A stretch of 64,000 nt of DNA, taken from positions 920-64,919 of the forward strand of contig JBMYSY010000011.1 in NCBI GenBank assembly GCA_049603795.1, in the 5' to 3' direction. Below the pieces are notes generated by a model. It ran no database searches, had not been told where the DNA came from, and saw only the letters and a list, made by a program, of their open reading frames with translations. Of this stretch, positions 33,194-62,807 are shown piece by piece. Made by a program: the position numbers and the translations under genes. Every line of letters starts with the position of its first letter. The stretch's first letter is position 1. Source of the DNA: Magnetovibrionaceae bacterium (lineage in GTDB: Bacteria > Pseudomonadota > Alphaproteobacteria > Rhodospirillales > JBMYSY01).

Positions 33194-34996
33194 ATGCCGC
33201 AGAGCAAATCCAAACGAAAGAAGCCCAAGAAGAAGGCCCCAGGCGGTGGCACGTCGCCCAAGACCCAGCCGATGATCACGGCCAGCGCGCGCGAGTTGGA
33301 CAGCGGCCAGGGCGGGGAGGCGAAGCTGGCAGAGGCTTTGGAGGCCTTCAACGCCCAAAACTGGCGCCGGGCCCTGACCCTGCTGGGCCATTATCTGAAG
33401 GATCATCCGACCCATCTTAAAGCCAACAAGATGGTCGTCGCCGCCTGGTTCGGGGAAGCGCAGCCGCTGAAGGCCGTCCCCGCCATGCGCATCGTGGCGG
33501 AACAGGAACCGGACAACCTGAACGGGCTGATCCGACTGGCCCATGTTCTGATCGAGGCCAACGAACTGCCGGAAGCCGAGAGCTGGCTGCGAAAGGCACT
33601 GAAACTGGCGCCGGAGAACGCCACCGTGCTGCGGTCTTTGGGGGCGGTCCTGCGCGATACCGGCCAGTTGAAGGAAGCGGTAGAGATCCTGAAGCGCGGC
33701 GTCGCTATCGACCCCCGGCCCTATGATATGGAATCCGGGCTGATCTTCTGTCTCGATTTTGTCCAGGATTCGACAACCGCCGAACAGCAGGCACAGCGAA
33801 GAGCCTGGGTTGATCGCTGGGTCGTGCCCCATGTGACGCCGATGCGCCATGACCCTTCGGGCCAGGTTCCGGATCGGAAGATCCGGGTCGGATATGTCTC
33901 GGGCGATTTCCGGAACCATTCGGCGGCGCGTTGTTTCGGACCGGTCGTCCTGAACCATGACCGGGAATCCTTTGAGGTTCACCTCTATTCGGCTTCCCCC
34001 GTCTACGACGACCTCTCGCAACGTTTTCGCGCCCATGCGGATGGCTGGCATCCGGTATGGCGGCTGAAGGAACAGGAGCTGTTCAGCAAGATCCAGGAAG
34101 ACCGGATCGATATCCTGGTCGATCTTTCCGGGTTCACCCTGGGCAACCGGCTGGGAGCCTTGTCGGGGAGGCCTGCCCCGATCCAGATCACCGCCTGGGG
34201 GCATGCCCATGGCGTCGGCATGCCTTCGATTGATTTCCTGTTTTCCGATCCTGTCTGTGTGCCGGAAGAGGAACGTTCCCTGTTCCCGGAAGAAATCGCC
34301 GACCTTCCCTGCCTGATCAGCTTTGATGCACCGGCGGATGCGCATCACCCGGGTCCTCTGCCGGCCCGGACGCGCGGCTTCGTCACCTTTGGCTGTTTCA
34401 ACCGGATCGTGAAGGTGACCGACGAGAGCCTGGCGCTTTTTGTTCGCGTGTTGGACGCCGTGCCGGACAGTCGGATCGTCTTCAAGGCGGGTGATTTCAG
34501 CAAACCCGGCGTCGTGTCACATTTCCGAACCTTCTTTGCGAAGGCAGGCATTGCGGAGGACCGCGTGACCCTGCTGGGCGACACCGACCGGGCGGAGCAC
34601 CTGGCGGCCATGTCGTCGGTGGATATCGCGCTTGACCCCATCCCGCACGGTGGAGGGGTCACGACCTTCGAGACCCTCTGGCAGGGCGTGCCGGTGGTGT
34701 CGCTCTATGGCAAGTCGGTGCCGGGCCGGGTCTCTGCGGCGATCCTGACCGCCTGCGGTCTGCCGGATTGGGTGGCCGGATCGGAAGACGACTATGTGGC
34801 GCTGGCTGCCGCCAAGGCCCGGGATCGAGAAACCCTCGGGAGTCTGCGCAGTGGCCTGCGCGATCAGGTCGCGTCCTCCGATGCTGTCCGCCCCGGCGCC
34901 TACGTCGCCGCCGTCGAGGCCTCTTACCGCGCCATGTGGCGGCGATACTGCGCGACCGGCAGCCCTCGAAGCCGCCCGCGAGAAGGCCAGGTTTGA
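33194..34996 (+). CDS. TPR-repeat protein with C-terminal GT41 (OGT/SPINDLY-like) glycosyltransferase domain, paralogue 1
   Basis: N-terminal TPRs are followed by the SPINDLY-family pattern: RVGYVSGDFRNHSAA, IDILVDLSGFTLGNRL, RPAPIQITAWGH, FGCFNR, IALDPIPHGGGVTTFETLWQGVPVV. Confidence 0.85.
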   Translation: MPQSKSKRKKPKKKAPGGGTSPKTQPMITASARELDSGQGGEAKLAEALEAFNAQNWRRALTLLGHYLKDHPTHLKANKMVVAAWFGEAQPLKAVPAMRIVAEQEPDNLNGLIRLAHVLIEANELPEAESWLRKALKLAPENATVLRSLGAVLRDTGQLKEAVEILKRGVAIDPRPYDMESGLIFCLDFVQDSTTAEQQAQRRAWVDRWVVPHVTPMRHDPSGQVPDRKIRVGYVSGDFRNHSAARCFGPVVLNHDRESFEVHLYSASPVYDDLSQRFRAHADGWHPVWRLKEQELFSKIQEDRIDILVDLSGFTLGNRLGALSGRPAPIQITAWGHAHGVGMPSIDFLFSDPVCVPEEERSLFPEEIADLPCLISFDAPADAHHPGPLPARTRGFVTFGCFNRIVKVTDESLALFVRVLDAVPDSRIVFKAGDFSKPGVVSHFRTFFAKAGIAEDRVTLLGDTDRAEHLAAMSSVDIALDPIPHGGGVTTFETLWQGVPVVSLYGKSVPGRVSAAILTACGLPDWVAGSEDDYVALAAAKARDRETLGSLRSGLRDQVASSDAVRPGAYVAAVEASYRAMWRRYCATGSPRSRPREGQV

Positions 34997-36657
34997 TGAG
35001 CGATCCGGTACGAGACGCCGCCGTCGAAATCTCTCAATTGATGCAGAAGGGCGACAGCGCCGAGGCCTGTGACCGGGCCGAGTTGCTGGTCGAGGCCCAT
35101 CCCGAGAGCCGGATCGCCCGCCAGGTGGCCGCCGCTGCCGCCCTGCAGGACGAAGATCCGGAAACCGGACTGATTCATCTGCTCTGGCTGCTGAAGCGCG
35201 ATCCCGAAGACGTCGAACGGCTGCGCCAGGTGGCGACCGTGCTTCTGGATATGAAACGCATGGCAAAGGCCGAACCTTACCTGCGCCTAGCAATGGGCAA
35301 GGAGCCGAAGCGCCCGGACCTGCATATCGATCTCGCCCGTTCGCTCGCGTCACAGAAAAAACATGCCGAGGCCGCGCATCACTATCGGGTGGCGATGGAA
35401 CTGGATCCCGACAACGAGATCACGCCGGAGAACCTGATCTTTATCCTGGACTTCATCCCGGAAGAAGACACCGCCCGTCAGCAGTTGGAGCGTCGGCGTT
35501 GGTACGAACGCTTCGTCGAACCCAATGTGGAGGCAAAGACCTATGATCCGGCCGAGGCCGACCCGGACAAGCCGGTGCTTCGCATCGGTTACGTCAGTGG
35601 TGATTTCAAACTGCACTCGGCCGCCCGGATTTTCGGGCCCATGATCCGGGACTACGACCGTGAGCGGTTCGAGGTCTATTGCTATCACACCGAACCGGAC
35701 GAGGACGAAGAGACCGAACGCTACCAGGCGGCGGCAACAGAATTCCGTATGGTCAGCCAGTACGACTATGGCGGCCTGACCAATCTGATCCGCAGGGATG
35801 CCCCTGATATCCTGGTGGACCTGTCCACCTTCACCCGCGGCGGTCGGCTCGAGACCTTCGCCCGCCGAGCGGCCCCGGTGCAGATTTCCGCCTGGGGCCA
35901 TTGCCATGGGACCGGCCTGCCGACCATGGACTATCTGTTTTCGGATAAAAACTGCATTCCGGCGGAAGAGCGATCGCTGTTTTCCGAGACCATCGTCGAT
36001 CTGCCTTGCGTGATTACCTTCGCGCCCGAAGACGGCCTGCCCGATGTGTCGGATGCCCCCTTCCGGCGAAACGGATACATCACTTTCGGTAGCTTCAACC
36101 GTATGGAAAAGCTGACAGCCGAATCCCTGGCGCTCTGGTGCCGGGTGCTGGCGGCGGTGCCGGGGTCGAGGCTGCTGTTGAAGGCGGGTGGGTTCGAGAC
36201 GGCTGTCGAGCGGGACCGGGTCTGGCAGGCTCTCCAGTCCGCCGGACTGGATCCCAATCGGGTGACCATGGCCGGCAGCACGGAACGCGACATCCATCTG
36301 ACCGCCATGAGCGACTGCGACATCGGTCTGGACACCTATCCCCATGGCGGCGGCATGACCACCTGCGAGATGCTCTGGATGGGCGTACCCGTGATCGCTT
36401 TGCGCGGCCGGGCGGTCGCGGGGCGGGTCTCGTCTTCGGTTTTGAGCACCCTCGGACTGGATGACCTTGTCGCGGATCATCCCGACACTTACGTTTCCGC
36501 TGCACAGGCCCTGGCGGCAGATCCTGATCGCCTTTTGGACTTGCGCCGTGAAATGCGGTCACGGATGACCACTTCGCCGCTTCTGGGTATCGAGCGCTAT
36601 GTGCGCGCGGTGGAAGACATCTACTTCAGGCTCTGGCGCGACTGGGCCGCGGGTTGA
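34996..36657 (+). CDS. TPR-repeat protein with GT41-like glycosyltransferase domain, paralogue 2
   Basis: ATG 34996 overlaps the upstream stop (TGATG). It shows the same motif series: RIGYVSGDFKLHSAA, PDILVDLSTFTRGGRL, RAAPVQISAWGH, FGSFNR, IGLDTYPHGGGMTTCEMLWMGVPV. Confidence 0.85.
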   Translation: MSDPVRDAAVEISQLMQKGDSAEACDRAELLVEAHPESRIARQVAAAAALQDEDPETGLIHLLWLLKRDPEDVERLRQVATVLLDMKRMAKAEPYLRLAMGKEPKRPDLHIDLARSLASQKKHAEAAHHYRVAMELDPDNEITPENLIFILDFIPEEDTARQQLERRRWYERFVEPNVEAKTYDPAEADPDKPVLRIGYVSGDFKLHSAARIFGPMIRDYDRERFEVYCYHTEPDEDEETERYQAAATEFRMVSQYDYGGLTNLIRRDAPDILVDLSTFTRGGRLETFARRAAPVQISAWGHCHGTGLPTMDYLFSDKNCIPAEERSLFSETIVDLPCVITFAPEDGLPDVSDAPFRRNGYITFGSFNRMEKLTAESLALWCRVLAAVPGSRLLLKAGGFETAVERDRVWQALQSAGLDPNRVTMAGSTERDIHLTAMSDCDIGLDTYPHGGGMTTCEMLWMGVPVIALRGRAVAGRVSSSVLSTLGLDDLVADHPDTYVSAAQALAADPDRLLDLRREMRSRMTTSPLLGIERYVRAVEDIYFRLWRDWAAG

Positions 36658-36685: not shown

Positions 36686-37453
36686 ATGAGCGACCAGGCA
36701 CCCCTGAACCGGGCGGAACGACGCAGGCGCGAACGCGAGGCCCGCAGGCTGGCGAAGCGCGACCAGGTGCCGCTCAAGGTGCTCTATCAGGATGCCATGC
36801 GCTTTCTCCAGGGCGGCGAGTTGGACCAGGCCGAAGCCCTGTTCCGGGATTTGTTGGACAAACAGCCGGGAGACCCGGGCCTGAACCAGATGCTCGGCAT
36901 TACCATGCTGCAAGCGGGCCGCTATGAAGAGGCACTGGAATGCTTTGACGAGGTCTTGGCCGTCGATCCGGGCTCTTTCGCCGTGATCGAAAACAAGGGC
37001 ATCACGCTGAAGGAACTAGGACGCCTGGAAGAGGCCAAGGTCTTGTTCGAGAAGGGCTTGGAAATTCGCCCTGATTCGACCGAAGCCCAGAACAATCTCG
37101 GCACCGCCCTGCACGATCTGGGTGATTTGGAAGGGGCGGGAGAAGCCTACCGACGCGCGTTGAAAGGGGCCTGGGGCTATGCCGACGCGCACTACAATCT
37201 CGGCCGCCTCTGTCGTGAACAAGGAGAGCCGGAAAAGGCCCTGGCCAGTCTCCACGAGGCTCTTCGCACCAAGCCCGATTGGATCGACGCCGGTATGGAG
37301 GTCGCGCGATCCCTGGCCGATCTCGGCCGTTTCGAGGTGGCCTTGGGCGAAATCGAAAAATGGTGTGAACGAGCCCCGGAGCACCAGCCCGTTCTGGATT
37401 TGCGCGATGAGATCAAACAGCGGGCAGAGGCACCGTCTACCGTTTTGAATTAG
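36686..37453 (+). CDS. TPR-repeat protein (no catalytic domain)
   Basis: The 255-aa protein from ATG 36686 has a basic N-terminus (RAERRRREREARRLAKR) followed by about six TPR units. Confidence 0.75.
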   Translation: MSDQAPLNRAERRRREREARRLAKRDQVPLKVLYQDAMRFLQGGELDQAEALFRDLLDKQPGDPGLNQMLGITMLQAGRYEEALECFDEVLAVDPGSFAVIENKGITLKELGRLEEAKVLFEKGLEIRPDSTEAQNNLGTALHDLGDLEGAGEAYRRALKGAWGYADAHYNLGRLCREQGEPEKALASLHEALRTKPDWIDAGMEVARSLADLGRFEVALGEIEKWCERAPEHQPVLDLRDEIKQRAEAPSTVLN

Positions 37454-38477: not shown

Positions 38478-40217
38478 TTATCGCTTGATCCGGACCAGCT
38501 CTTCCAGCATTTCGTCTGTGGTCGAAATCACCTTGGCCGCTGCGGAATAGGCCCGCTGCACCACGATCATGTTGGTGAATTCTTCCCCGATGTCCACGGT
38601 GGAGGCCTCCAAGGCACCTTGGATGGTCTGACCGGCGGAGCCGTTATCGGCCACCCGCAGGGTATAGTCGCCAGAGGCCTCGGTTGAGTTCCAGACGTTA
38701 CCCGTCCGGCTTTCCAGCCCGTTCGGGTTCACGAAGGTCGCAACCGGGATCTGGAATACCGTTCGGGTTTCCCCGTTGTCGAACAGCGCGGTCACCAGCC
38801 CCGAGGTATCCACCGTCACACCGGCGAAGGTCCCGAACTGCGATCCGTTCTGCTGAATGAAGATCGGGGTGAAGTCCCCACCGAACTGGGTCAAGCCGTT
38901 GGCTTCCGAGGTGTCCCCGAAGTCCAGCGCGATCTTGGCGACATCCGTTACACCGTCCGCGTTGAGGTCGGTGTTGTTGAAGTCCGCCGCACCATTGGTG
39001 AAGTTGTGCAGGGAGAGCACGGTCGGTTCGATTGCGCCCGGCAATCCATCGGCCTGGAACACGAACGAACTGGTGGTCGTAGCCGTGATTTGGGGCACCG
39101 TGAAGTTGTTGGTCGCCTGGCCCTGCTTCGTGGCAATCCCGGTGGAACCCGAAATCGTCAGGCCGGTCAGGCCGCTGAAGGCCATGCTGCCGGTGCCGTT
39201 TTCTTCAAAGATGATGGTCGTTGCCGTCCCATCCTTTGCCGCAAATCGCGAACCGGCAAAGTCGGTGTTGAGTTCCGTGATCAGGTCACTGACCACTTGG
39301 GCCAGGGTGGCACCGTTGGTCGAGATGATGTTATCCGACGTTGTGGTATTGGCACCGGTCGTGAAGGTGTAAACCGAACCGCCGATGGTGACCGTTGCAC
39401 CCGTCCCCGGGATCCCTGTGAACTCCAACTGACCGATCGCCATGACCACCTGACTGGAGGCATTTTCCAGCGTCGCATAGGCCACGCCCAGCGGCGGCTC
39501 GGCGGTCAGGTTCCATTCGTTCGCCGTCGACGTCTTGGTGTATTCGAACGACATCGTATTCGCCGTGCCAAGGGTGTCGAAGAACTGAACGTCCGTCTTC
39601 TGGTAGCCGGCCTGTGTGGTCGGGTTCGGCAGCGAAGAGTCATAGGGGTCCGCCGTCGCCGGCAGGTTCGCGCCTACGCCGATCGAGGTCGTCTCTGCCG
39701 CCGTACCGCCAACCCGGTTCAGGTTGATCGATTCCAGATAATCGGTCGAGATGATGTTCTGGTTGGCAATCGAGAGGCTTTCGTTCGCCGGGGTGACGTT
39801 GCCGCTGGCGTCCGTCGGCCAACCCTGCAGGAAGAACCCCTGGGAGTTCTGCAGGAAGCCTTCGTCGTTCAGCCGGAACGAACCGGATCGGGTGAACAGG
39901 AACTCGTTCGAAATCCCCGGCTGGGAGGCTTCGTTGACAACGAAGAAACCCTGGCCGGAAACCGCGAAGTCCGTCGATGACGACGAGGCCTGAAGCAAGC
40001 CTTGGATGTCCGCGTTCTGCCGGGGCCTGGATTGCACACCACCAGCGGAATAGAAGGTCGCCGAGGTCTGGGTGGTTACCAGGGTCTGAAAGTTGACCGT
40101 GGTTCCCTTGAACCCCACCGTGGAGACGTTCGTGATGTTATCTGAGATGGCGCCCATGGCGCTGGATTGCGCCTGCAGGCCGGACACCCCCGAAAACAAT
40201 GCACCATAGAGTGACAT
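38478..40217 (-). CDS. flgE: Flagellar hook protein FlgE
   Basis: The N-terminus MSLYGALFSGVSGLQAQSSAMGAISDNITNVSTVGFK and the C-terminus EEFTNMIVVQRAYSAAAKVISTTDEMLEELV are the conserved rod/hook terminal helices. It is 579 aa. Confidence 0.93.
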   Translation of the reverse strand: MSLYGALFSGVSGLQAQSSAMGAISDNITNVSTVGFKGTTVNFQTLVTTQTSATFYSAGGVQSRPRQNADIQGLLQASSSSTDFAVSGQGFFVVNEASQPGISNEFLFTRSGSFRLNDEGFLQNSQGFFLQGWPTDASGNVTPANESLSIANQNIISTDYLESINLNRVGGTAAETTSIGVGANLPATADPYDSSLPNPTTQAGYQKTDVQFFDTLGTANTMSFEYTKTSTANEWNLTAEPPLGVAYATLENASSQVVMAIGQLEFTGIPGTGATVTIGGSVYTFTTGANTTTSDNIISTNGATLAQVVSDLITELNTDFAGSRFAAKDGTATTIIFEENGTGSMAFSGLTGLTISGSTGIATKQGQATNNFTVPQITATTTSSFVFQADGLPGAIEPTVLSLHNFTNGAADFNNTDLNADGVTDVAKIALDFGDTSEANGLTQFGGDFTPIFIQQNGSQFGTFAGVTVDTSGLVTALFDNGETRTVFQIPVATFVNPNGLESRTGNVWNSTEASGDYTLRVADNGSAGQTIQGALEASTVDIGEEFTNMIVVQRAYSAAAKVISTTDEMLEELVRIKR

Positions 40218-40434
40218 AACCTTTTCTCCTTCACCGGGCCGGGCCGCGCTTGCTCAACGCGCCGTCCCTGAATTCCGTGTTGGCGGGCTGACCTTCTTGT
40301 CGGGTTCCGCCGCCGACGCATACCCATTCAATCCTTCTGTTTGATTTGCCCGAGTGGCTGTTTTCGCTCTCCCGGGCGGCGGCCTTCTGGCCACCTTTAA
40401 GCTGCACGTCTCTTCTGACTGACTGTCTGTCTGT

Positions 40435-41133
40435 CTATTCTTCGGCGTCGAGTTGCGGCACGTTGTATTCCTGCACCGCCAGGACATCCGCCTGGTCGAC
40501 CACGATGGAGCCCATCGACAGGGTGACGTTTCCGTTCTCGGATCCCGCCCCGGTCACCTTGCCGGTCACGGTGGTCGTCACGTCCATTGGCTCCCGGTCG
40601 GCATTGATCGGGCTGACGATCAATTGATAGGCCCCGTCGTCCAGTTGCTGACCGCCATTGGTCTTGCCGTCCCAAACCACGGCATGAGTGCCGGCAGAGG
40701 TATTGCCGTCGACCGAGTAGTAGATCGTCCCATCCGGCCCGGCGATGGAGACGGTGGTCGCCTCCGCGTTGGTATCCAGCGTGTAGGTGAACTGGGCGAC
40801 ACCATCTTCGAGGGGCAACTCGTCGCCGACGGCGGTGATGGCATTGCCGATGTAGTTCACCATGTCGGCGATCTGGGTGTTCTGGTTCAGGCCGATCAGC
40901 GTTTCCAGGTTCGAGTTGGTGTGGATCGCCTGTTCAACGCCCGCGAAGGCGACCAACTGGGCCGTGAACTCGTTGGCGTCCATCGGGTCCAGCGGGTCCT
41001 GGTTCTGCAGCTGGGTGACCAGCAGGGTGAGGAACTGGTTCAGGTCCTCTTCCAGCTGTTGCTGATCCTGCGTCGCCTGGGTGCCGGTCGCATTCGATTG
41101 GGTCGCCGACAGACTGTTTCCGATGATAGGCAT
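40435..41133 (-). CDS. flgD: Flagellar hook capping/assembly protein FlgD
   Basis: It has the FLTLLVTQLQNQDPLDPMDANEFTAQLVAFAGVEQ signature and a C-terminal FlgD Ig-like region. Confidence 0.92.
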   Translation of the reverse strand: MPIIGNSLSATQSNATGTQATQDQQQLEEDLNQFLTLLVTQLQNQDPLDPMDANEFTAQLVAFAGVEQAIHTNSNLETLIGLNQNTQIADMVNYIGNAITAVGDELPLEDGVAQFTYTLDTNAEATTVSIAGPDGTIYYSVDGNTSAGTHAVVWDGKTNGGQQLDDGAYQLIVSPINADREPMDVTTTVTGKVTGAGSENGNVTLSMGSIVVDQADVLAVQEYNVPQLDAEE

Positions 41134-41183
41134 GATCCTGCACTCACATGGTTAAGGGTTGATCCGATGGGGGAACCTGGCCG

Positions 41184-42986: not shown

Positions 42987-43071
42987 TTTTCTTTCTCCGT
43001 CCCTTAGAGGAGTCTGTTGTCGCCGGACCTTCTCTCTGGACCTGCGACGGGAATTCGCTCGAGCCCTATTC

Positions 43072-49905: not shown

Positions 49906-50063
49906 AGCCGAACCACAGTCTGTCTCACCAGGCACACCTGTCTTTATAAACGCTGGACAAGGGGAATCCCGCTCTCTAACACTCTCAACCCTAGACTTAG
50001 ACCGCTGGTCAGTGTTCCCAAAGCCTATCCTGCCCACCTTCCACAAAAACAGGCAAGCCAACC

Positions 50064-53744: not shown

Positions 53745-53839
53745 GCTTTGTTAACCTTAGTGGGTTCTATTGCCTGGAAGGACGCTCTTATCCCATGGGG
53801 TAGGTGCTTGCGACACTTGATGCCAGGAAGGCCGAGGCC

Positions 53840-54754
53840 ATGACCGATATTACGCTTTCGACTGCTGTTCGCTCCAACCTGCTGTCCCTGCAGAACACCG
53901 CAGGCTTCATTGACCGGACGCAGAGTCGATTGTCGACCGGGTTGAAGGTCGCGAGCCCCACGGATGACGCCGTGAAATTCTTCCAGGCGAAGTCGCTCTC
54001 TGACCGGGCGATCGATTTGGGAAACCGAAAATCGGCGGTCGATCAGGGAATTTCTTCGTTGGACACGGCGCTGAAGGCGACCGAGGCCATTGAACAGTTG
54101 GTCAGCCAGTTGAAAGGGATCGTGGACAGCGCGAGGTCCGGCGACGAGACGCAGCGCAAGGACTTCGGTGCCCAACTCCGCGAGATCGCCGACCAGATTG
54201 AGAAGCTGGTGGAAGACGCGAGCTACCAAGGTTTGAACCTGCTGAACTCCTCAGCCTCCAAGCTTTCCGTTCGCTTCTCCGATAAGACAGATTCAAAGCT
54301 GGATGTGGATGGGATCGATTTCCAATCGTCCGCGTTCTTCCTGACCTCCGCCGGTGTCGCCATCGGCGCGGCGGGTGTCAGCACGGATGGGGTGATCTCC
54401 GGCGTTCTTGGCTTTTCGGAGTTGCTGTCCAGCTTCAACTTCGACGACTCCTCAGACCTGGCCTCCTTCAACGCCCAGGCTGACTTGGCCATCACCCGTC
54501 TCGATCAGGTGATCTCCAACGTGCAATCGCAGTCGGCAACGCTCGCGACCAACGTGGCCATCTTGCAGGTGCGGTCCGACTTCACCAAGGAATACATCAA
54601 CACGCTTGAGACCGGTGCCGGCAAGCTGACGGTGGCCGACCTGAACGAGGAAGGGGCGAACCTTTTGGCGCTCCAGACCCGTCAACAGTTGGGTATTCAG
54701 GCGCTGTCCTTCGCCGGACAATCGGAACAGTCGATCCTGGGCCTCTTCGGCTAG
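53840..54754 (+). CDS. Flagellin (paralogue 1, 304 aa)
   Basis: It has the flagellin N-domain (LSTAVRSNLLSLQNT..RLSTGLKVASPTDDAV) and C-domain (LATNVAILQVRSDFT..LLALQTRQQLGIQALSFA). The centre is Ser/Thr-rich. It starts at ATG 53840. Confidence 0.9.
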   Translation: MTDITLSTAVRSNLLSLQNTAGFIDRTQSRLSTGLKVASPTDDAVKFFQAKSLSDRAIDLGNRKSAVDQGISSLDTALKATEAIEQLVSQLKGIVDSARSGDETQRKDFGAQLREIADQIEKLVEDASYQGLNLLNSSASKLSVRFSDKTDSKLDVDGIDFQSSAFFLTSAGVAIGAAGVSTDGVISGVLGFSELLSSFNFDDSSDLASFNAQADLAITRLDQVISNVQSQSATLATNVAILQVRSDFTKEYINTLETGAGKLTVADLNEEGANLLALQTRQQLGIQALSFAGQSEQSILGLFG

Positions 54755-54810: not shown

Positions 54811-54843
54811 GGGGTCGATACTGTGATGTGTCGGCCCCTTTTT
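54811..54843 (+). terminator. Rho-independent terminator after flagellin 1
   Basis: The hairpin is GGGGTCGA-12 nt-TCGGCCCC, with one G-U pair, followed by a T5 run. Confidence 0.65.
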
Positions 54844-55017: not shown

Positions 55018-55932
55018 ATGTCCGACCTTACACTTTCGACAGCCGTTCGCTCGAACCTGCTGTCTCTTCAAAACACCTCCGGCTTGATCGACCGTACACA
55101 AAGCCGTCTGTCCACGGGCTTGAAAGTTGCCAGCCCGACCGATGACGCTGTGAAGTTCTTCCAAGCCAAATCGCTCTCCGACCGTGCAACCGACCTCGGC
55201 AACCGTAAATCTGCGGTGGACCAGGGGATTTCGGCTCTCGATACCGCGCTGAAAGCAACGGAAGCGATCGAAAGCCTCGTCAGCCAGCTCAAGGGTATTG
55301 TTGACAGTGCCCGGTCCGGTGACGAAACCCAACGTAAAGATTTTGGTGCCCAGCTGAAGGAAATCGCCAGCCAGATCGAAAAACTGGTCGACGATGCGAG
55401 CTACCAAGGTTTGAACCTGTTGAACTCCTCGGCTTCCAAGCTTTCCGTCCGGTTCTCCGATAAAACGGACTCCAAGCTGGATGTGGATGGGATCGACTTC
55501 CAGTCGTCCGCTTTCTTCCTGACGTCCGCCGGTGCCGCTATCGGTGCTGCCGGTGTTAGTACGGATGCGGTGATCTCCGGTATCCTTGGCTTCTCGGAGT
55601 TGCTGTCCAGCTTCAACTTCGATGACTCCTCCGACCTGGCTTCCTTCAACGCTCAGGCCGACTTGGCCATCACCCGGCTTGACCAGGTGATCTCCAACGT
55701 GCAGTCGCAGTCCGCAACGCTCGCGACCAACGTCGCCATCTTGCAGGTGCGTTCCGACTTCACGCAGGAATACATCAACACACTTGAAACCGGTGCCGGT
55801 AAATTGACCGTGGCCGACCTCAACGAAGAGGGTGCAAACCTTCTGGCCCTGCAGACCCGGCAGCAGCTGGGTATTCAGGCCCTGTCGTTCGCTGGTCAGT
55901 CCGAACAGTCGATCCTGGGTCTCTTCCGGTAA
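55018..55932 (+). CDS. Flagellin (paralogue 2, 304 aa)
   Basis: It differs from paralogue 1 at about 15 of 304 residues, by my alignment. It has its own upstream region and terminator. Confidence 0.9.
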   Translation: MSDLTLSTAVRSNLLSLQNTSGLIDRTQSRLSTGLKVASPTDDAVKFFQAKSLSDRATDLGNRKSAVDQGISALDTALKATEAIESLVSQLKGIVDSARSGDETQRKDFGAQLKEIASQIEKLVDDASYQGLNLLNSSASKLSVRFSDKTDSKLDVDGIDFQSSAFFLTSAGAAIGAAGVSTDAVISGILGFSELLSSFNFDDSSDLASFNAQADLAITRLDQVISNVQSQSATLATNVAILQVRSDFTQEYINTLETGAGKLTVADLNEEGANLLALQTRQQLGIQALSFAGQSEQSILGLFR

Positions 55933-55954
55933 GTCTAGGGTTCGCCTGATATGG

Positions 55955-55994
55955 GGCCGGGGAAGGGTGGCTATCCTTCTCCGGCCTCTTTATT
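55955..55994 (+). terminator. Rho-independent terminator after flagellin 2
   Basis: It has the 12-bp stem GGCCGGGGAAGG-8 nt-CCTTCTCCGGCC, with one G-U pair, followed by TCTTTATT. Confidence 0.7.
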
Positions 55995-56032: not shown

Positions 56033-56482
56033 ATGCCCCTTAATATCCACCTCCGCAAAAGCCAGCGCATCATCATCAACGGTGCCGTGATCGAAAACGT
56101 CGGCGCGCAGAACGCGTCGCTTCGCGTCATGAACAATGCACTTGTCCTGCGGGATTCGGATGTGCTGACACCTGAAGATGCCGTCACGCCCGCCAGCCGG
56201 GCGTATTATGCTTTACAATGTCTTTACCTCTTTCCTGAAGACTGGGCCGAGAACCTTGCCCGGTTCCGGCAGTTTCTGGACCCTTACGTTCAGGCCGCTC
56301 CCAGCGCCAAACCGATTTCAGAAGCCGTGTTGGATTTAATCGACAAGGGCAAGATGTATCAGGCACTCAAGAAGGGCCAAGAGCTGATCAATCACGAGCA
56401 CGAGGTTTTTGCTCATGTACAAGAACGACTTAGTGAAAAACTACAATCAGGCTCCGGCTCCGGGGAACTCGAGACAAACTGA
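56033..56482 (+). CDS. flbT: Flagellin translation repressor FlbT
   Basis: ATG 56033 gives MPLNIHLRKSQRIIINGAVIENVG..LRVMNNALVLRDSDVLTPEDAVTPASRAYY. This parallels Caulobacter/Brucella FlbT. Confidence 0.85.
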   Translation: MPLNIHLRKSQRIIINGAVIENVGAQNASLRVMNNALVLRDSDVLTPEDAVTPASRAYYALQCLYLFPEDWAENLARFRQFLDPYVQAAPSAKPISEAVLDLIDKGKMYQALKKGQELINHEHEVFAHVQERLSEKLQSGSGSGELETN

Positions 56483-56852
56483 AGCCTGGGGGATGATGCA
56501 GGCGGCGATTCGTCTGCGCGAAGCCAAAGAATCCGGGGACCCGGACATGATCCAGGCCGCCGTCCGGATCAACTGGCAGCTCTGGACCATCATTCAGGCC
56601 GATCTTCTGGAACCCGATTGCCCCCTGCCGACCGACCTGCGCAGCAATGCGCTGTCCTTGGCGACATTTATTGATAAGCATTCTATGCAGACCCTGACCA
56701 ACCCGGTGCCAGAGCGCCTGGAGGTGTTGATCAACATCAACCGGGAATTGGCGAGCGGCCTCTATCAAAACCCCACCGAGGAAGGCACCCAGCAGACAGA
56801 GGCGGCACCACCCGCGCCTGCGGTTCCCGGCATGACCGACACGTCCGTTTGA
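56415..56852 (+). CDS. flaF: Flagellar biosynthesis regulator FlaF
   Basis: ATG 56415 is preceded by GAGG. The FlaF-like pattern is present (YNQA..SRQTEAWGMMQAAIRL, NWQLWTI). It overlaps the flbT 3' end by 68 nt in another frame. Confidence 0.8.
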   Translation: MYKNDLVKNYNQAPAPGNSRQTEAWGMMQAAIRLREAKESGDPDMIQAAVRINWQLWTIIQADLLEPDCPLPTDLRSNALSLATFIDKHSMQTLTNPVPERLEVLININRELASGLYQNPTEEGTQQTEAAPPAPAVPGMTDTSV

Positions 56853-56864: not shown

Positions 56865-58787
56865 ATGGATATCCAGAACGAAAAACCGGCGGCCTTGGAA
56901 CAGGCCGTTGTTGATCGCCTGACCGAGTTGGCCAAGGCGGGCCAATGGGACGAGATCGAAAAAATTTGCCGCCCTCTCGCCGAAGCAGAACATGTGTCGG
57001 CAGAGATCTATTACCTCTTGGGACTGGCCGCATTCCAACGCTCTAACTATGCGGATATGTTGACCTTTGCCCGTGCGGCTGTCGATTCCAACGCCATGGT
57101 ATCCGAATGCGCGGATCTGACCGCCGTTGCCTTCGGCCTGGTTGGCGACATGAACAACGCGCTTTTCTATGCCAAGCTTGGCGGTGCTGTCCCCTCGGCG
57201 GAGCCGTTCAAGACGTGGAAACCGGTCGAGTTCCCCACCGTCCAAGCCACCTTTGCCGATGTCCAGGAAGCACCCTTGTTGGCCAGGGGCATGTTGGAAC
57301 TGTCGGTGGGCAATCTGGACAAGGCCGCGCACTGGTTCCACCAGGCGATTGCCGTGGACAATGCTGATCTTCAGGCCTACCTCGGTCTCGTTCAGTGCCT
57401 GAACCTTCAGGAATCCTTCTTCGAAAGTTGCGACGTCCTGCGGGCCGCCCGCCACAGCCTGCCTGACAATGTTCAGATTGCAGCCGAACTGGGCTCGGCC
57501 CTGGCGGCCCTTGGTGAATACGACCGCTCGTTGGCGGTTCACCAGGCTGTTCGGGAAATGGGCGCACCGGATCCTCAGCTCGAACGCGATGCGCTGTTCG
57601 ATCTGATGAGTACCCCGGGGACCACTCAGGCCCAGATCGCAGAGGCCATGAAGAGTTGGGGCGAACGGCACGGGGTTCCCGGAGCCGCTTTGTCGTCCCC
57701 TACCAAGCCGGTCGAGAAGCCGCGTCTGACCGTGGGCTATGTGCTGGGCCGTCGCCGCGCACGCCAGGTTGGCCAGCTGCTCAGTGGCATTATGGCGCAT
57801 CATAACTTCAGTGAATGGCGCGTGGTCGGTTTTGGCGACGGAACGCTTACAGATGACGTCAACACACCGTTCCAGAAAGCCTGCGAGGTCTGGCACGATA
57901 CCCGGGACATGGACCCCTATACCTTCGGGGCCATCGTTACGTCAGAAGGGGTCGACATTCTGATTGATGCGTCAGGCCTGACCACACCGGGCATCTATGG
58001 CGCATTCGCCAGCCGTCTTGCACCTGTTCAGATCGCCTGGGCCGGCGCTGAAGATGCCTCGATCTTCGATGCTACCGATGTGGTGCTCGGCGATGCGGGT
58101 ATGGATCCGGATGGCGCCAAGGTCGGGCCCCTTACACCCTCTCTTCTGAAGACGGGCTTTGTTCTGTGCGAAAAACCCGCCCCGGCACCCGATTCTGCGC
58201 CGACGGAGGACGCGGCTCCTCTAACCTTTGGCGTTGATGCCACGCTGGCGGAGTTGGTCCCGGCTACGGTTTCCCTGTTTGCCGAGGTGCTCGGGAAAGT
58301 GCCGGATGCGAGCCTTGTTTTGCGAGATCATGGATTTCATGCTCCGGCCCAGGTGGATCGGCTGATTTCCTTGTTTGGCGACCATGGCGTCTCTCACCGG
58401 ATCGACGTGATTTCCGCCGAAACGGACGATCAGTTCCTGGCCGAAACGGATGTCTGCCTGGTCCCGCTCGGCTCCCGCCGGCTTGAAATCCCGCTGGTGG
58501 CGATGGCGCAAGGCAAGCCCGTTGTGGCGTTGCAAGGCCCGGTTCGATCCGCCCGCGTCGTTGATTCCCTGCTCATGGCTATCGCGCCCGAAACCTGCCC
58601 GCCGGTGGCGGACAGGGCGGCCTACGTGTCATCTGCCGTGCAATGGGCATCCGATGCCGATCGCCGTGCCGCCGTGAAGGCGCCCCTGTCTCAGGCGGTC
58701 CAAGATTCTAGCCTGTTTGCTGCGGACAAAAGGGCGACCGAGTTGGAGGCCCTCTACAAGGATCTCTGGCAAAAAGCCATCAGCTGA
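56865..58787 (+). CDS. TPR-repeat protein with divergent GT41-like glycosyltransferase domain, paralogue 4
   Basis: The 640-aa protein has TPRs followed by LTVGYVLGRRRARQV, VDILIDASGLTTPG, RLAPVQIAWAG and FGVDATL. It is more divergent than paralogues 1-3. It starts 12 nt after the flaF stop. Confidence 0.7.
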   Translation: MDIQNEKPAALEQAVVDRLTELAKAGQWDEIEKICRPLAEAEHVSAEIYYLLGLAAFQRSNYADMLTFARAAVDSNAMVSECADLTAVAFGLVGDMNNALFYAKLGGAVPSAEPFKTWKPVEFPTVQATFADVQEAPLLARGMLELSVGNLDKAAHWFHQAIAVDNADLQAYLGLVQCLNLQESFFESCDVLRAARHSLPDNVQIAAELGSALAALGEYDRSLAVHQAVREMGAPDPQLERDALFDLMSTPGTTQAQIAEAMKSWGERHGVPGAALSSPTKPVEKPRLTVGYVLGRRRARQVGQLLSGIMAHHNFSEWRVVGFGDGTLTDDVNTPFQKACEVWHDTRDMDPYTFGAIVTSEGVDILIDASGLTTPGIYGAFASRLAPVQIAWAGAEDASIFDATDVVLGDAGMDPDGAKVGPLTPSLLKTGFVLCEKPAPAPDSAPTEDAAPLTFGVDATLAELVPATVSLFAEVLGKVPDASLVLRDHGFHAPAQVDRLISLFGDHGVSHRIDVISAETDDQFLAETDVCLVPLGSRRLEIPLVAMAQGKPVVALQGPVRSARVVDSLLMAIAPETCPPVADRAAYVSSAVQWASDADRRAAVKAPLSQAVQDSSLFAADKRATELEALYKDLWQKAIS

Positions 58788-58788
58788 T

Positions 58789-60885
58789 GTGAGCGGGGTG
58801 ATCGTGGCGGGGGAGACGGAGCTGTTCCAGCGAAACCTCGACGCTTGGGTCGATTTTCTGAAAGACCACAAGGCGCGCGGTGTCGCCCCGCTAATTGATG
58901 CAGCCCGTTCATCACCGCCGGATTTGACGGGCGATGCCTTCGAGAGAGATGACGCAGGGCGCATCATCAATCTTAAAAAGGGCGACCAGCCGCTGTACCC
59001 GAAGGCCGGTGACGTCTTTGCGGCAGAGCAGATCGATCACTATTTTGCCGATCCAGATCGGATTCACACGGATGCGGTAAAATATGGCTCTCTCGCGCTT
59101 CGGGGAAAGCAGTTCTGGGTCGATCTGACCCGGGTCCGTTCCGAGCTTTGTTCGAAGCCGCCCCTTGCCCTGCCCAAGAAGGACGTCGGGTACAGCTTCG
59201 TCTTCGGATTGGGGCTTGGATATCACATTCGGGACGTGATCAAGCGGACCCATAGCCAGCACGTTCTTGTCTACGAGCCGAGCGAGGCCTTTTTCCTGGC
59301 TTCCCTGGAAGCGATGGACTGGGAGGCTGTGTTCGCTGCCGTGGAAGCCGAGGGCTCTGAACTTTACATCTGTGTTGGAGACACGCCCCAGGAATTCGCT
59401 CTCGCGGCAGAACTGATGGTCGAAAAATATGGTCCGACGCTGCTGGATGGGTCCTACGCCTATGTCCACGACACCCGTTGGGCCGTGACGGAAGCCCGGG
59501 CTCTGCTCAATACCGCCCTGCCGTCATATTTTCACACCAAAGGCTTCTTTGATGATGAGCTTTTGATGATGAAGAACAGCTACCGCAATTTCTCGAAGCG
59601 GGATTTTTTCTTTATCGATCGCTCTGTTCCCAAACAGCAGACCGTGCCCGTTTTCATCGTCGGTTCCGGACCGTCTCTGGATCGCGATCTTGCGGCCATC
59701 AAGCGCTACAAGGACCAGGCATTGGTCTATTCCTGCGGCAGCTCGCTGGGCGTCTTGCTGAAAAATGGCATTCGCCCTGACCTGCACGTGGAAAATGAAA
59801 ACACTCCGCAATTGGTCTCCAACTTAAGGGATTTCGAAGCGGAATATGGGCTTCAAGGCATCACGCTCACCGCTTCCAGCACGGTCAACACAGAAGCCTT
59901 GGAGCTGTTTGACGAAACCTGGCTCTATTTCCGGGACTATCTGAGCCCATCTTTCCTTCTGAACCCCGGAATCACGCCCGTGCTTGGGGCGGCTCCGTTG
60001 GTTTCCAACGCTGCCTTTTCGGTCGCCGTTACCCTTGGCTTTCGGGAGATTTATCTGTTCGGTTGCGATTGTGGTCGTCGCGAGGCGGCGGGCCATCACG
60101 CGGAAGGTGCCGTCTACTACGAGGACGGCTACGACAATTTCCTACCTGGCGAAGGGCTCGATTTGTTGGATCGGGAATTCGACCGGCGCGTGCCGGCCAA
60201 TTTCGGCGGGGAGGCGCTCACGACCTGGTACCTCGACATGTCCAGAACCGCCATGGCCATGTTGCAGCGGGTGGCGAAGACCCAACTGGTGAACTGTTCC
60301 GATGGTGCGCGCATTGAAGGAGCGCGGCCCATGGCCTCCTCCGCGTTGCGCTTAACGGGGCCTCGGTTTGACCGACTGCGTCTGAAAGCGGGGCTGAAAA
60401 ACGATCGACTGAAGGCCTATTCCCGGGGCCAGGTGCTGGAAGAGGTCGATTTGGCAGGCACAATTGGGGATGTCCGGCAGCTGGCGGATCGCTTTCGCGA
60501 TGCCATGGCCCAGGCCCGGAGCCAAGATGGTTGCTACAAGTCCTTTCTTGCGCGTATCCAGCGGTTGCGAGAAGAAACACCGAAAGACCAGGCCGGGCCG
60601 TTTTATCTGCTGTCCGCATCGCTCTATTCCTTCATTCGGGCCGGCGCCTATCTTGGCTCCCGGATTGACGAGGCGGAGGCCTATGACATTTTCCGGGAGA
60701 TTTTTTTCGACGCTTATGAAGAAGCGGTCCTGGCCATGCTGTCTGATGCCGAAGACCATTTGAAGGTCATGGAAGCAGGGGGGGGGCCGCTGCCGGAGTT
60801 CTGGACCCCGGACGGAGCGGACCTGGGCGAACAGCTGGTCCCGCGCGATCTCTTGGGCCGACGGGCGGCGGAGCAATCCTCTTGA
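58789..60885 (+). CDS. maf: Motility accessory factor (Maf/DUF115) flagellin glycosyltransferase, copy 1
   Basis: It has the DUF115 core VFIVGSGPSLDRDLAAIKRYKDQALVYSCGSSLGVLLKNGIRPDLHVENEN and GCDCGRR. The likely start is GTG 58789. The six-frame ORF starts at 58717, inside the upstream gene. Confidence 0.8.
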   Translation: MSGVIVAGETELFQRNLDAWVDFLKDHKARGVAPLIDAARSSPPDLTGDAFERDDAGRIINLKKGDQPLYPKAGDVFAAEQIDHYFADPDRIHTDAVKYGSLALRGKQFWVDLTRVRSELCSKPPLALPKKDVGYSFVFGLGLGYHIRDVIKRTHSQHVLVYEPSEAFFLASLEAMDWEAVFAAVEAEGSELYICVGDTPQEFALAAELMVEKYGPTLLDGSYAYVHDTRWAVTEARALLNTALPSYFHTKGFFDDELLMMKNSYRNFSKRDFFFIDRSVPKQQTVPVFIVGSGPSLDRDLAAIKRYKDQALVYSCGSSLGVLLKNGIRPDLHVENENTPQLVSNLRDFEAEYGLQGITLTASSTVNTEALELFDETWLYFRDYLSPSFLLNPGITPVLGAAPLVSNAAFSVAVTLGFREIYLFGCDCGRREAAGHHAEGAVYYEDGYDNFLPGEGLDLLDREFDRRVPANFGGEALTTWYLDMSRTAMAMLQRVAKTQLVNCSDGARIEGARPMASSALRLTGPRFDRLRLKAGLKNDRLKAYSRGQVLEEVDLAGTIGDVRQLADRFRDAMAQARSQDGCYKSFLARIQRLREETPKDQAGPFYLLSASLYSFIRAGAYLGSRIDEAEAYDIFREIFFDAYEEAVLAMLSDAEDHLKVMEAGGGPLPEFWTPDGADLGEQLVPRDLLGRRAAEQSS

Positions 60886-62807
60886 CCCGGGCAGCCGAGA
60901 GGGCAGCGGCCGGACTGGTCACCCTTCGCCAGGCGATGCCGGAGGTCGCGGAGGCGTTGGTGGGATTCCCTCCGAACCGTCCCGCCCTGGAAGGGAGATG
61001 GTCGGAAGACAGGCTGGTCAACATAAAGGTCGGACCCAGCGACTGGCTCTATGAGCACAGCGCTGCTGCCACGACCGAAGCGCAAGTGTCGGAGTTGAAG
61101 AGCAACCCGGATCTGATTTGCTTCCCCGACCCTGCGGACGAGCCGCCAGCGGCGTTTTTGTCGACCTTCGCAGCCGAAGTCCCGTCAAGTGGATCGGAAC
61201 GCCCCTGTTCCGGCGGCTATGGCTTTCTGTTCGGTGTCGGACTTGGGGACCATCTTGAACCACTGATCGAAGCGACTGAATGCCGCCAACTCGTGTTGAT
61301 CGAACCCAACCCGGTTTTGCTGCATGCCAGCTTGTTTGCGGTCGACTGGACGGCGATCTTTCGCCGGGCCGGGGAGTGTGGGATCGGATTGCGGTTCATT
61401 CTCGGTTCCGACCCCGAAGCCCTGGTGCGCCAAATAGAAGAGCTCTTGATCCGCGATGGCCTGCCAGCCGTCCTCGATGGTTCCTTTGCCCACCTGCATT
61501 ATCCGGCCTGGGCCCTGGTGGAAGCCCGGAAACTTTTCAATCAGCGTATTCGGAATTTTCTGATCAGACCGAATACGCACGAAGACGAAGCCATCATGTT
61601 GCGCCACAGTGCCGCCAACCTGGACCTCGCCTCCGAACGCGATGTCCGCCTGCTTTGTCCCGGACCAGTTATCGAAGAGGCACCGCCGGTGCTGATCGTC
61701 GGCTCCGGCCCCTCTCTGGACAGGGACCTGGAAAACCTGAGAAGGCTGAAGGACCACCTGGTGATCGTCAGTTGCGGGACGGCACTGGGGGTTTTGTTGA
61801 AGAATGGCATACGCCCGCATCTGCATATCGAAAACGAAAACACCGCCCCCCTGGTGCAGAACCTGAGGAATTTTCGCGCCAATTATGGCTTCGACGGGAT
61901 CAGGCTCTGCTGCTCGACAACCGTTTCAAGCGCCGTTCTGCCACTTTTCGATCAGGCATGGATGTACTTTCGCGCTGCCCTGTCGCCAGCCGAAGCCTTT
62001 GGATTCGGCGACCAGGCGATCCCTTTTGCAGGGCCTCTGGTCGCCAATGCTGCTCTGGCGGCGCTTTCGGCCCTGGGGTTCCGGCGGTTCATCCTGGCCG
62101 GCGTCGATTGCGGGCGTCGCGAACACCTCGATCACCATGCGGCGGATAGCGTCTACCTGGATGAAGCCTACGATAACTACGAAGACGGCGTCGACGAAGC
62201 CTTTATCAAAGGCGAGTTCGTTCGGGAGGTGCCGGGCAACTTCGGCGGGTCCGTGTTGACGTCCTCCTTTTATGACCTTTCCCGTAGGACCTTGGCCGAG
62301 ACCATTCTTCACAATGGCCTGGATGTTTTGAATCTGGCCGACGGGGCGCGGATCGACGGGGCGAGACCGAAGGTTTCATCGGCCCTCGATCTGCCGCCTT
62401 GCCCGATTCTACCGGCAGAAGTTTTGGATCGCCTGTGGCGTGGTGCGGTCCGTTCCGATGCGGGCGTACAGGCCCGCAAGGCCCGCCTGAGATCTGCCAG
62501 GGCTGAACTCGCAAGTTGGCGCGAAACGTACCGGCAACGTGTGGCGGAAACAGATCCCGGGCTCGATCCCTGGGACTTGGCTCGGTCGTTGAAGAGCCTG
62601 AGAGGGCCGGATGCCGGCATGCCGACCAGGCTCGAAAAGACCCTGTCCGGTTCGCTTTCATGGCTGGAAAGGATCGGGTTGTATCGGGCCATCCGTACAC
62701 CGGCATCCGACAGGGAAGCCTTCAACGAGCGCTTTCTGGCCGCGCTGATCCCCGCCGTGGATCAGGTGATCGCAGATGTCGAGGAGATTTTGAACCGTCA
62801 GGCGTAG
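60882..62807 (+). CDS. maf: Motility accessory factor (Maf/DUF115) flagellin glycosyltransferase, copy 2
   Basis: It has the same core: VLIVGSGPSLDRDLENLRRLKDHLVIVSCGTALGVLLKNGIRPHLHIENEN and GVDCGRR. Its start overlaps the copy 1 stop. Confidence 0.8.
   Translation: MTRAAERAAAGLVTLRQAMPEVAEALVGFPPNRPALEGRWSEDRLVNIKVGPSDWLYEHSAAATTEAQVSELKSNPDLICFPDPADEPPAAFLSTFAAEVPSSGSERPCSGGYGFLFGVGLGDHLEPLIEATECRQLVLIEPNPVLLHASLFAVDWTAIFRRAGECGIGLRFILGSDPEALVRQIEELLIRDGLPAVLDGSFAHLHYPAWALVEARKLFNQRIRNFLIRPNTHEDEAIMLRHSAANLDLASERDVRLLCPGPVIEEAPPVLIVGSGPSLDRDLENLRRLKDHLVIVSCGTALGVLLKNGIRPHLHIENENTAPLVQNLRNFRANYGFDGIRLCCSTTVSSAVLPLFDQAWMYFRAALSPAEAFGFGDQAIPFAGPLVANAALAALSALGFRRFILAGVDCGRREHLDHHAADSVYLDEAYDNYEDGVDEAFIKGEFVREVPGNFGGSVLTSSFYDLSRRTLAETILHNGLDVLNLADGARIDGARPKVSSALDLPPCPILPAEVLDRLWRGAVRSDAGVQARKARLRSARAELASWRETYRQRVAETDPGLDPWDLARSLKSLRGPDAGMPTRLEKTLSGSLSWLERIGLYRAIRTPASDREAFNERFLAALIPAVDQVIADVEEILNRQA

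Follow-up and report, generated by a model that had tools for sequence, protein, structure and literature searches.

A GT41-fold protein without donor-site residues encoded between flaF and maf in an alphaproteobacterial flagellin glycosylation island

Why would a single flagellar locus encode glycosyltransferase-like proteins of two families beside two flagellins that are nearly the same? The question is raised by a flagellin glycosylation island that lies inside the flagellar genes of an uncultured Rhodospirillales-like alphaproteobacterium (Magnetovibrionaceae bacterium, contig JBMYSY010000011.1 of assembly GCA_049603795.1), of which we analysed a stretch of 64,000 nucleotides, hereafter the window. 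The island contains two flagellin genes, the gene string flbT-flaF-GT41_4-maf1-maf2, several genes for proteins that join tetratricopeptide repeats (TPR) to a GT41 glycosyltransferase domain, and a partial pathway for a nonulosonic acid of the legionaminic acid type. In an earlier note on this DNA, four TPR-GT41 proteins and two Maf proteins had been counted as six candidate transferases. We consider it somewhat better than an even chance that one of them, GT41_4, is a non-catalytic partner of Maf, that the Maf proteins are the nonulosonate transferases and that the intact GT41 proteins are active on other sugars.

GT41 proteins of the island and the donor site of GT41_4

Pfam analysis bore out the assignment of the four TPR proteins to GT41, as all of them exceed the gathering score of PF13844 (Glyco_transf_41; 25 bits): the scores were 136 bits (1.3e-39) for GT41_1, 166 bits (1e-48) for GT41_2, which was scanned as the longer open reading frame (ORF) 34768-36657, 116 bits (1.6e-33) for GT41_3 and 36 bits (3e-9) for GT41_4, and N-terminal TPR matches were found in each. 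None of these GT41 and Maf proteins is covered by a specific NCBIfam model, the matches being to TPR or partial only. The island does not stop at 62807, the end that the earlier note had given it. An overlapping identical contig (L001) extends it by 5.5 kb beyond the end of the window (L001 7704-13080, about 64105-69481) with genes encoding GT41_5 (739 aa; PF13844 at 2e-73, 248 bits), a NUDIX hydrolase, GT41_6 (707 aa; 1e-19, 70 bits) and a second FlaF. The locus thus holds at least six TPR-GT41 genes (four in the window and two in L001) where four paralogues had been counted, and orthologues of GT41_5 and GT41_6 are present at the same position in a related locus (L003, GCA_054033415.1).

Among solved structures, GT41_1 matched SPINDLY of Arabidopsis (8.5e-83), the O-GlcNAc transferase (OGT) of Thermobaculum, TtOGT (8.5e-81), and human OGT (4e-57), while TtOGT was the best match of GT41_4 (5e-30); for both proteins the matches cover the TPR and the catalytic regions of SPINDLY and TtOGT. 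The family hallmarks were located by HMMER alignment of GT41_1 with SPINDLY, TtOGT and human OGT. They are the histidine of DF-x-x-H (H242), presumably the catalytic histidine H558 of human OGT, the lysine of F-G-x-F-N-x-x-x-K (K407) and the threonines of the G-G-x-T-T loop (T490-T491). K407 aligns with the SPINDLY lysine and with Met341 of PDB entry 5DJS, entitled 'O-GlcNAc transferase mutant - K341M', and this alignment with a mutated position of TtOGT identifies it as the catalytic lysine, which we take to correspond to K842 of human OGT.

In a MAFFT alignment the lysine, the histidine and the Thr-Thr pair are all kept in GT41_1, GT41_2, GT41_5 and GT41_6. GT41_3 keeps the lysine and has tyrosine for histidine and Thr-Ala for Thr-Thr. 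Among 90 mainstream homologues, the lysine position is held by Lys in 87 and Arg in three, the histidine position by His in 80, Gln in six and Tyr in three, and the second threonine by Thr in 71, Ala in 12 and Ser in seven. We considered GT41_3 as a second pseudoenzyme and did not adopt this view, as both of its substitutions occur in mainstream homologues (Tyr in 3 of 90, Ala in 12 of 90); since they lie within the natural variation of the family, GT41_3 may be active. From these residues we infer that GT41_1, GT41_2, probably GT41_3, and GT41_5 and GT41_6 are active enzymes of the OGT/SPINDLY type. Their donors are probably common UDP- or GDP-sugars: the window has no genes for making a second, dedicated sugar, which would leave them the housekeeping pools.

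The donor site of GT41_4 is of another kind. Glu463 stands at the position of the catalytic lysine, Arg or Ala at that of the histidine and Glu-Ile at that of Thr-Thr, and the loss of the motifs was seen in the MAFFT alignment and independently in HMMER alignments to TtOGT and SPINDLY. An AlphaFold model of GT41_4, built from the alignment of its subfamily, has a mean pLDDT of 93 and a pTM of 0.90; in a Foldseek search it matched TtOGT (5DJS) with a TM score of 0.81 and a root-mean-square deviation of 4.2, followed by SPINDLY, XcOGT and human OGT. According to the model, GT41_4 retains the GT41 fold but not the donor site, and its residues make it an unlikely nucleotide-sugar transferase of the OGT type.

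This condition is shared by a whole subfamily. A word-indexed search had returned 12 weak matches at 30% identity or less and made GT41_4 look like an orphan, a view discarded once an exhaustive HMMER search brought up about 46 relatives of full length (617-668 aa, 26-38% identity). Across the resulting alignment of 47 members, the lysine position is occupied by Glu in 26, Asp in 10 and Gln in four, and by Lys in none, the histidine and Thr-Thr positions are variable, and the structural motifs R-x-A-P-x-Q, D-x-x-L-x-P and G-x-P-V-V persist. At the former lysine site the members share a new conserved motif, F-[GA]-A-D-A-x-L-x-[ED]-L; K104, Q160, D458 and E463 are among the residues that the subfamily conserves, and it is monophyletic in 50 of 50 bootstraps. 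All nine complete syntenic orthologues of GT41_4 are without the lysine, the histidine and Thr-Thr. The count of six candidate transferases is not supported by these observations. In the source databases the members are annotated as 'hypothetical protein' or as generic SPINDLY-family OGT. The top-scoring matches to GT41_4 in the exhaustive search were giant proteins of about 3,000-3,800 aa with up to nine tandem GT41 modules (P0123-P0126).

The GT41 proteins of the island are old, separate orthogroups by sequence comparison. GT41_1 and GT41_2 are 42% identical and all other pairs 21-28%, and closer orthologues occur elsewhere: a 69% identical relative of GT41_1 (P0273), beyond which more than 2800 homologues follow at about 40-45%, proteins 35-36% identical to GT41_4 in L003 and L004 (Magnetospirillum sp. 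WYHS-4), and in L003 a 692-aa protein 37% identical to GT41_5 and a 707-aa protein 33% identical to GT41_6. Recent local duplication, which the earlier note had suggested and proposed to date by a phylogeny of the GT41 domains, was rejected on these identities (21-42%), each paralogue being closer to its orthologues in other genomes; a neighbour-joining tree of the catalytic domain recovered the orthologue groups in 50 of 50 bootstraps, that is, old orthogroups and not recent duplicates.

Maf proteins, gene order and the proposed role of GT41_4

The Maf/DUF115 assignments of the earlier note hold, and both proteins proved to be full-length, with Maf_flag10_N and MptE-like matches at about 1e-27 to 1e-32 (PF20157/PF01973, 113/103 bits for one Maf and 113/93 bits for the other). 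Maf2 matches the structure of Maf from M. magneticum (5MU5) at 1.3e-48 and has 110 homologues, the best of them 46% identical, in Rhodospirillales-type genomes; Maf1 and Maf2 are 38% identical to each other and share 18 invariant columns with 23 homologues. The matches to solved structures, here and for GT41_1 and GT41_4 above, lie well outside what chance would give. The two Mafs would be the nonulosonic-acid transferases of flagellin.

Recognition of the acceptor by Maf needs either a fused C-terminal TPR, as in Maf-1 of Shewanella, or the small cis-encoded GlfM, as for Maf-2 (bioRxiv 10.1101/2023.12.03.569772). Pfam found no TPR domain in Maf1 or Maf2. A gene for a GlfM-like adaptor (about 89 aa) flanking maf was looked for and rejected, as there is no free ORF space: the gap between GT41_4 and maf1 is 1 bp, that between maf1 and maf2 is -4 bp, and maf2 overlaps the convergent gene of a 356-aa protein. 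The TPR of Caulobacter FlmG binds flagellin (PMC7591256), and in the GtfA/GtfB system a glycosyltransferase-like subunit only binds the acceptor, as a chaperone (PMC6973325).

Between flaF and GT41_4 lie 12 bp, and maf1 has two possible starts, a GTG at 58789 and, by the gene call on the Logan contig, 58804. The linkage of the fourth TPR-GT41 gene and the maf genes to flbT-flaF, proposed earlier, agrees with this spacing, which is consistent with probable co-transcription; a common transcript of flbT, flaF, GT41_4, maf1 and maf2 is plausible from the gene layout, and the order recurs in other loci. We compared 11 other flagellar maf loci, fetched one by one around Maf homologues and subfamily members, which is not a census. 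In every flagellar locus examined the order was flagellin, flbT, flaF, GT41_4-like, maf. It was present in GCA_054033415.1 (L003), Magnetospirillum sp. WYHS-4 (L004), a metagenome-assembled genome of Hyphomicrobiales (L006), Logan SRR22388185 (L008), GCA_040216475.1 (L009), GCA_048268385.1 (L010), JGI metagenome 3300050014 (L011), Haematospirillum (GCA_012102705.1; L012) and GCA_054781475.1 (L013), which carries a Maf match named Novispirillum itersonii; one further locus, L007, begins within the C-terminal end of a GT41_4-like gene, directly before two maf genes. The arrangement occurs in many genomes of the Rhodospirillales type; cultured carriers include Magnetospirillum and Haematospirillum, and judged by the source names of Maf matches, Novispirillum itersonii and Terasakiella pusilla are probable carriers as well. 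In L010-L013 the GT41_4-like protein is the sole GT41 protein and Maf is single, so that the minimal unit is one degenerate GT41 and one Maf beside genes for pseudaminic or legionaminic acid (Pse/Leg). The exception is a Maf copy of Magnetospira thiophila that lies outside a flagellar context and has no GT41 neighbour; the linkage therefore holds for Mafs of flagellar loci and not for every Maf.

Since the Mafs are without TPR and there is no room for GlfM, since Maf has a published need for a recognition element and since GtfA/GtfB offers a precedent, we favour GT41_4 as the partner of Maf. It would be a pseudo-glycosyltransferase in which the TPR superhelix and the bilobal GT41 fold are kept and the residues that hold the nucleotide sugar are gone. 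Its TPR/GT41 scaffold would bind flagellin, and probably Maf as well, and would present flagellin to Maf for transfer of the nonulosonate ahead of FlaF-assisted export, a role comparable to that of GlfM for Shewanella Maf-2, of the fused TPR of Maf-1 and of GtfB for GtfA. The intact GT41 enzymes would transfer a monosaccharide from a UDP- or GDP-sugar to Ser/Thr residues, either of flagellin or of another flagellar protein. The wider proposal, that flaF-linked proteins with TPR and a GT41 fold form an unrecognised pseudo-glycosyltransferase family serving alphaproteobacterial Mafs as acceptor-specificity subunit, is tentative and in our estimate falls a little short of an even chance.

Several points weigh against this picture. 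The new motif at the lysine site could mean an active site that is remodelled rather than dead. Moreover, CMP-nonulosonates have no beta-phosphate, so that a donor of this kind might still be used after loss of the lysine. Gene order is evidence of coupling but not of mechanism, and the link of GT41_4 to Maf and flagellin is read from it and from sequence. Flagellin is no more than a candidate acceptor for the intact GT41 proteins, and proteins of the GT41_1 type are abundant in many non-flagellar contexts. Finally, homologues of NeuB/LegI, LegG, LegH and PtmE were not found in the 69.5 kb of the window and L001, which leaves the nonulosonate pathway locally incomplete (LegB-like, LegC-like, cytidylyltransferase and HisH/HisF-like proteins are present); the absent genes may lie elsewhere, the source contig being 135 kb long.

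The main rival, unlikely in our judgement though not negligible, is that GT41_4 has remained an enzyme whose donor pocket was remodelled. It could be, for example, a CMP-nonulosonate:flagellin transferase that descends from a GT41 ancestor and came to work like FlmG. In that case the cassette would code for two or three different nonulosonate transferases acting at different sites or with different sugars, and indeed in Shewanella a single flagellin is served by two nonulosonate transferases (bioRxiv 10.1101/2023.12.03.569772) and FlmG is a TPR and GT-B protein that uses CMP-Pse or CMP-Leg (PMC7591256; bioRxiv 10.1101/2022.03.25.485807). However, no homology with the catalytic domain of FlmG was detectable, and the minimal loci always hold a Maf, which would already supply that activity. 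The pocket itself points both ways: acidic residues, D458 and E/D463, are conserved across the subfamily in place of Asn and Lys, and the model retains the fold fully and with high confidence, yet the former phosphate loop and the histidine vary freely in the 47 members with no conserved replacement, which is unexpected for a nucleotide-binding pocket.

We regard it as improbable that the intact GT41 proteins, and perhaps GT41_4, act on other proteins (hook or export components, regulators) or serve as regulatory TPR proteins like GmaR of Listeria, which is both a glycosyltransferase and an anti-repressor; GT41_4 would in that case modulate the control of flagellin translation or export by FlbT/FlaF. 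The position of GT41_4 directly after flbT-flaF in every locus examined fits this proposal, but flaF is not its only constant neighbour, maf being invariant on the downstream side, and Pse/Leg genes accompany the cassette. In eukaryotes, GT41 enzymes act on a very wide range of substrates, and genes for a LysR regulator and the TPR-only protein follow GT41_1 and GT41_2, whereas no DNA-binding or regulator domain was detected. The least probable reading is that of the earlier note, by which every TPR-GT41 protein and each Maf would be active on flagellin and together they would build a multi-sugar or multi-site glycan: every protein does carry a GT41 or Maf domain among flagellar and sugar genes, the central region of the flagellins is rich in Ser/Thr and predictions place GT41 enzymes in the flagellin glycosylation islands of enterobacteria (PMC4875605), but GT41_4 has lost every donor-binding hallmark, the window offers no genes for a second dedicated sugar and GT41_1-type proteins are widespread outside flagellar loci.

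How Maf picks flagellin from the cytoplasm is an open problem, and in published work Maf activity could be reconstituted only once GlfM or a fused TPR had come to light. As a possible non-catalytic Maf partner, GT41_4 and its relatives are a testable candidate for the missing component of Maf in the alphaproteobacteria, the group that includes the organism of the solved Maf structure. If this is true, they represent a third route to flagellin recognition, after the fused TPR (FlmG, Maf-1) and the small adaptor GlfM (Maf-2), in which a former OGT-type enzyme now serves an unrelated GT-A-like transferase as a scaffold that presents flagellin. A GT41 enzyme would here clearly have become a non-catalytic scaffold, with a bearing on the evolution of pseudoenzymes and on the engineering of cytoplasmic systems resembling protein sialylation. 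Furthermore, up to five apparently active OGT/SPINDLY-type genes in one flagellar locus raise the possibility that flagellar proteins of bacteria carry a modification of the O-GlcNAc or O-Fuc type.

Layout of the island and neighbouring genes

ORFs are present at all the gene coordinates given in the earlier note (for the whole layout see Table 1).

Table 1. Features of the island and its surroundings, with coordinates in the window.
Feature	Coordinates	Strand	Evidence and remarks
GT41_1: TPR + GT41 (OGT/SPINDLY-like)	33194-34996	+	PF13844; motifs H242, K407, T490-T491 intact
GT41_2: TPR + GT41	34996-36657	+	PF13844; motifs FKLH / MEKL / GGGMTT intact
TPR-only protein, 255 aa, without catalytic domain	36686-37453	+	TPR families are the sole Pfam matches; good ribosome-binding site before ATG
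flgE (38478-40217), flgD (40435-41133), fliK (41184-43076)	38478-43076	-	Pfam
GFO/IDH/MocA oxidoreductase	43183-44265	+	Pfam/NCBIfam
PseF/LegF-like cytidylyltransferase	44262-44948	+	Pfam/NCBIfam
Short-chain dehydrogenase/reductase (SDR)	44945-45718	+	Pfam/NCBIfam
Putative glycosyltransferase, Glyco_trans_1_2 (CgeB-like)	45740-46897	+	PF13524 at 3.8e-18
GT41_3: long TPR array + GT41	46889-49075	-	PF13844 at 1.6e-33; Lys kept
Conserved protein without family match	49072-50061, probable start 49905	-	Coding-like G+C at third codon positions (GC3) of 0.72; no match in Pfam/NCBIfam
WbuZ/HisF-like	50064-50930	+	NCBIfam TIGR03572, 264 bits
HisH-like	50930-51559	+	NCBIfam TIGR01855, 196 bits
LegB-like dehydratase	51581-52576	+	NCBIfam TIGR04180, 447 bits (cut-off 475)
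LegC-like aminotransferase	52554-53744	+	NCBIfam TIGR04181, 394 bits (cut-off 420)
Flagellin 1	53804-54754, probable start 53840	+	Pfam Flagellin_N + Flagellin_C
Flagellin 2	55018-55932	+	Pfam; 95% identical to flagellin 1
flbT	56033-56482	+	PF07378 at 3.4e-31
flaF	56409-56852	+	PF07309 at 3.1e-23
GT41_4: TPR + GT41 fold without donor-binding/catalytic motifs	56865-58787	+	PF13844, 36 bits
Maf1 (Maf_flag10_N + MptE-like)	58789-60885	+	Pfam, 1.6e-32 and 1.8e-29
Maf2 (Maf_flag10_N + MptE-like)	60882-62807	+	Pfam, 2.3e-32 and 2.3e-26
Conserved 356-aa protein, convergent with maf2	62798-63868	-	No Pfam/NCBIfam match

As a flagellar and chemotaxis region, the window also encodes CheA/Y/B/R, CtrA, FliI, FlgE, FlgD and FliK, proteins of the FlhF, FlhA, MotA, FliH, FliG and FliF types and a sigma-54 activator. 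The closest database relatives of the island proteins are from Rhodospirillales-type metagenome-assembled genomes (69% identity for GT41_1, 46% for Maf2). The earlier interpretation as a whole is partly supported: the setting among flagellin and nonulosonic-acid genes is confirmed by the neighbours, the gene at 36686-37453 indeed matches TPR families only, and the two flagellins called nearly identical are so over their 303 aa. Among uncharacterised genes, a 572-aa ORF at 19140-20858 (-) without Pfam match lies just downstream of flhF/MinD-like genes.

The ATG of GT41_2 overlaps the stop of GT41_1, and the TPR-only gene and a LysR regulator gene lie downstream of both. The gene at 49072-50061 (-) overlaps the start of GT41_3 by 4 bp and, because of this overlap, probably shares an operon with it; its homologue in L006 (39% identity) is flanked by legC and flagellin. 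The 356-aa protein is a conserved component of related flagellar/glycosylation loci, with homologues beside maf or flagellin in L003 (40% identity), L007 (62%), L010 (30%) and L011 (27%). In L003, at 17583-19697, the pair of GT41_5-like and GT41_6-like genes is followed by genes for a Gtf3_C-type glycosyltransferase, an adenylylsulfate (APS) kinase and a phosphoenolpyruvate (PEP)-utilising enzyme, which hints at further modification there, e.g. sulfation.

Each flagellin gene is followed by a strong terminator-like hairpin, at 54811-54838 (+) after flagellin 1 and, with a 16-bp stem, at 55953-55988 (+) after flagellin 2, so both flagellins are probably monocistronic. The position of the latter terminator, together with the sequence MPLNIHL, suggests that flbT probably starts at about 56033 and not at 55832, the start of the longest ORF. 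A scan of 53-64 kb found no sigma-70-like promoter sites and is uninformative for flagellar promoters. Among the sugar genes, the scores of the LegB-like and LegC-like proteins are just below the NCBIfam equivalog cut-offs and far above those of the PseB/PseC models. No match to a model of a WbuX-type amidotransferase was obtained among the proteins scanned. The triad of oxidoreductase, cytidylyltransferase and SDR genes also adjoins flagellin in L011.

Comparison with known glycosylation systems

Maf and FlmG are the only recognised classes of flagellin nonulosonate transferases (bioRxiv 10.1101/2022.03.25.485807). In the full texts searched for links of GT41/SPINDLY to flagellin or of flaF/flbT to Maf, we found no description of a flaF–GT41_4-like–maf cassette. 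The earlier note had not recognised the conserved, probably dead GT41 partner of Maf.

That note had likened the TPR-GT41 proteins to Caulobacter FlmG. We retrieved flmG by the gene-specific part of the published primer NK-74; its 596-aa product starts with MSRKSAL and ends with DFAAS, in agreement with the primers. The comparison stands as an architectural analogy, which is how it had been phrased: in FlmG of Caulobacter and Brevundimonas, too, an N-terminal TPR region is followed by a GT-B-type domain, the gene lies near flbT/flaF, and the TPRs align (hhalign probability 96%, E 4.7e-9, FlmG residues 59-310). It does not extend to the transferase domain, which is not GT41. FlmG did not match PF13844, Pfam finding TPR repeats only, and its C-terminal domain aligns with no window protein and not with the profile of the GT41_4 subfamily; common family membership was thus rejected, as BLAST, phmmer against all window proteins and hhalign with the 47-member profile aligned the TPR region only. 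FlmG is itself a nonulosonate transferase, and its genome is without Maf (PMC7591256).

With the known Mafs (5MU5 and those of Campylobacter, Aeromonas and Shewanella), Maf1 and Maf2 share the architecture, the invariant residues and the place next to flagellin and nonulosonate genes. They differ from them by their tandem arrangement at 38% identity, by the lack of both a TPR extension and a GlfM neighbour, and by the GT41-fold gene that always precedes them.

Flagellin islands of enterobacteria contain SPINDLY-type GT41 genes, by genomic prediction only, and most of these are fused to methyltransferase domains; the GT families are reported to be mutually exclusive per island, and neither a pairing with Maf nor a catalytically degenerate subfamily is described there (PMC4875605). 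By sequence, and for GT41_4 also by its model, all four GT41 proteins of the window share the TPR and bilobal GT-B fold of human OGT, SPINDLY, TtOGT and the Xanthomonas enzyme XcOGT, from which GT41_4 departs by Glu in place of the catalytic Lys and by the loss of the His and Thr-Thr.

GtfA and GtfB are related to each other and belong to other GT families, whereas Maf (GT-A-like) and its proposed chaperone (GT41 fold) are unrelated. The systems are alike in that a protein is O-glycosylated in the cytoplasm by one catalytic and one acceptor-binding GT-like subunit, the acceptors of GtfA-GtfB being the serine-rich-repeat adhesins of Gram-positive bacteria (PMC6973325). The proposed joint action of accessory protein, Maf and flagellin is also that of GlfM and Maf-2 in Shewanella oneidensis, where a Maf without a flagellin-binding domain of its own also lies beside a conserved accessory gene (bioRxiv 10.1101/2023.12.03.569772); GlfM, with 89 residues, is a four-helix bundle whose gene follows maf, whereas here the candidate partner is a 640-residue protein with TPR and a GT41 fold, encoded upstream and bearing no sequence relationship to GlfM.

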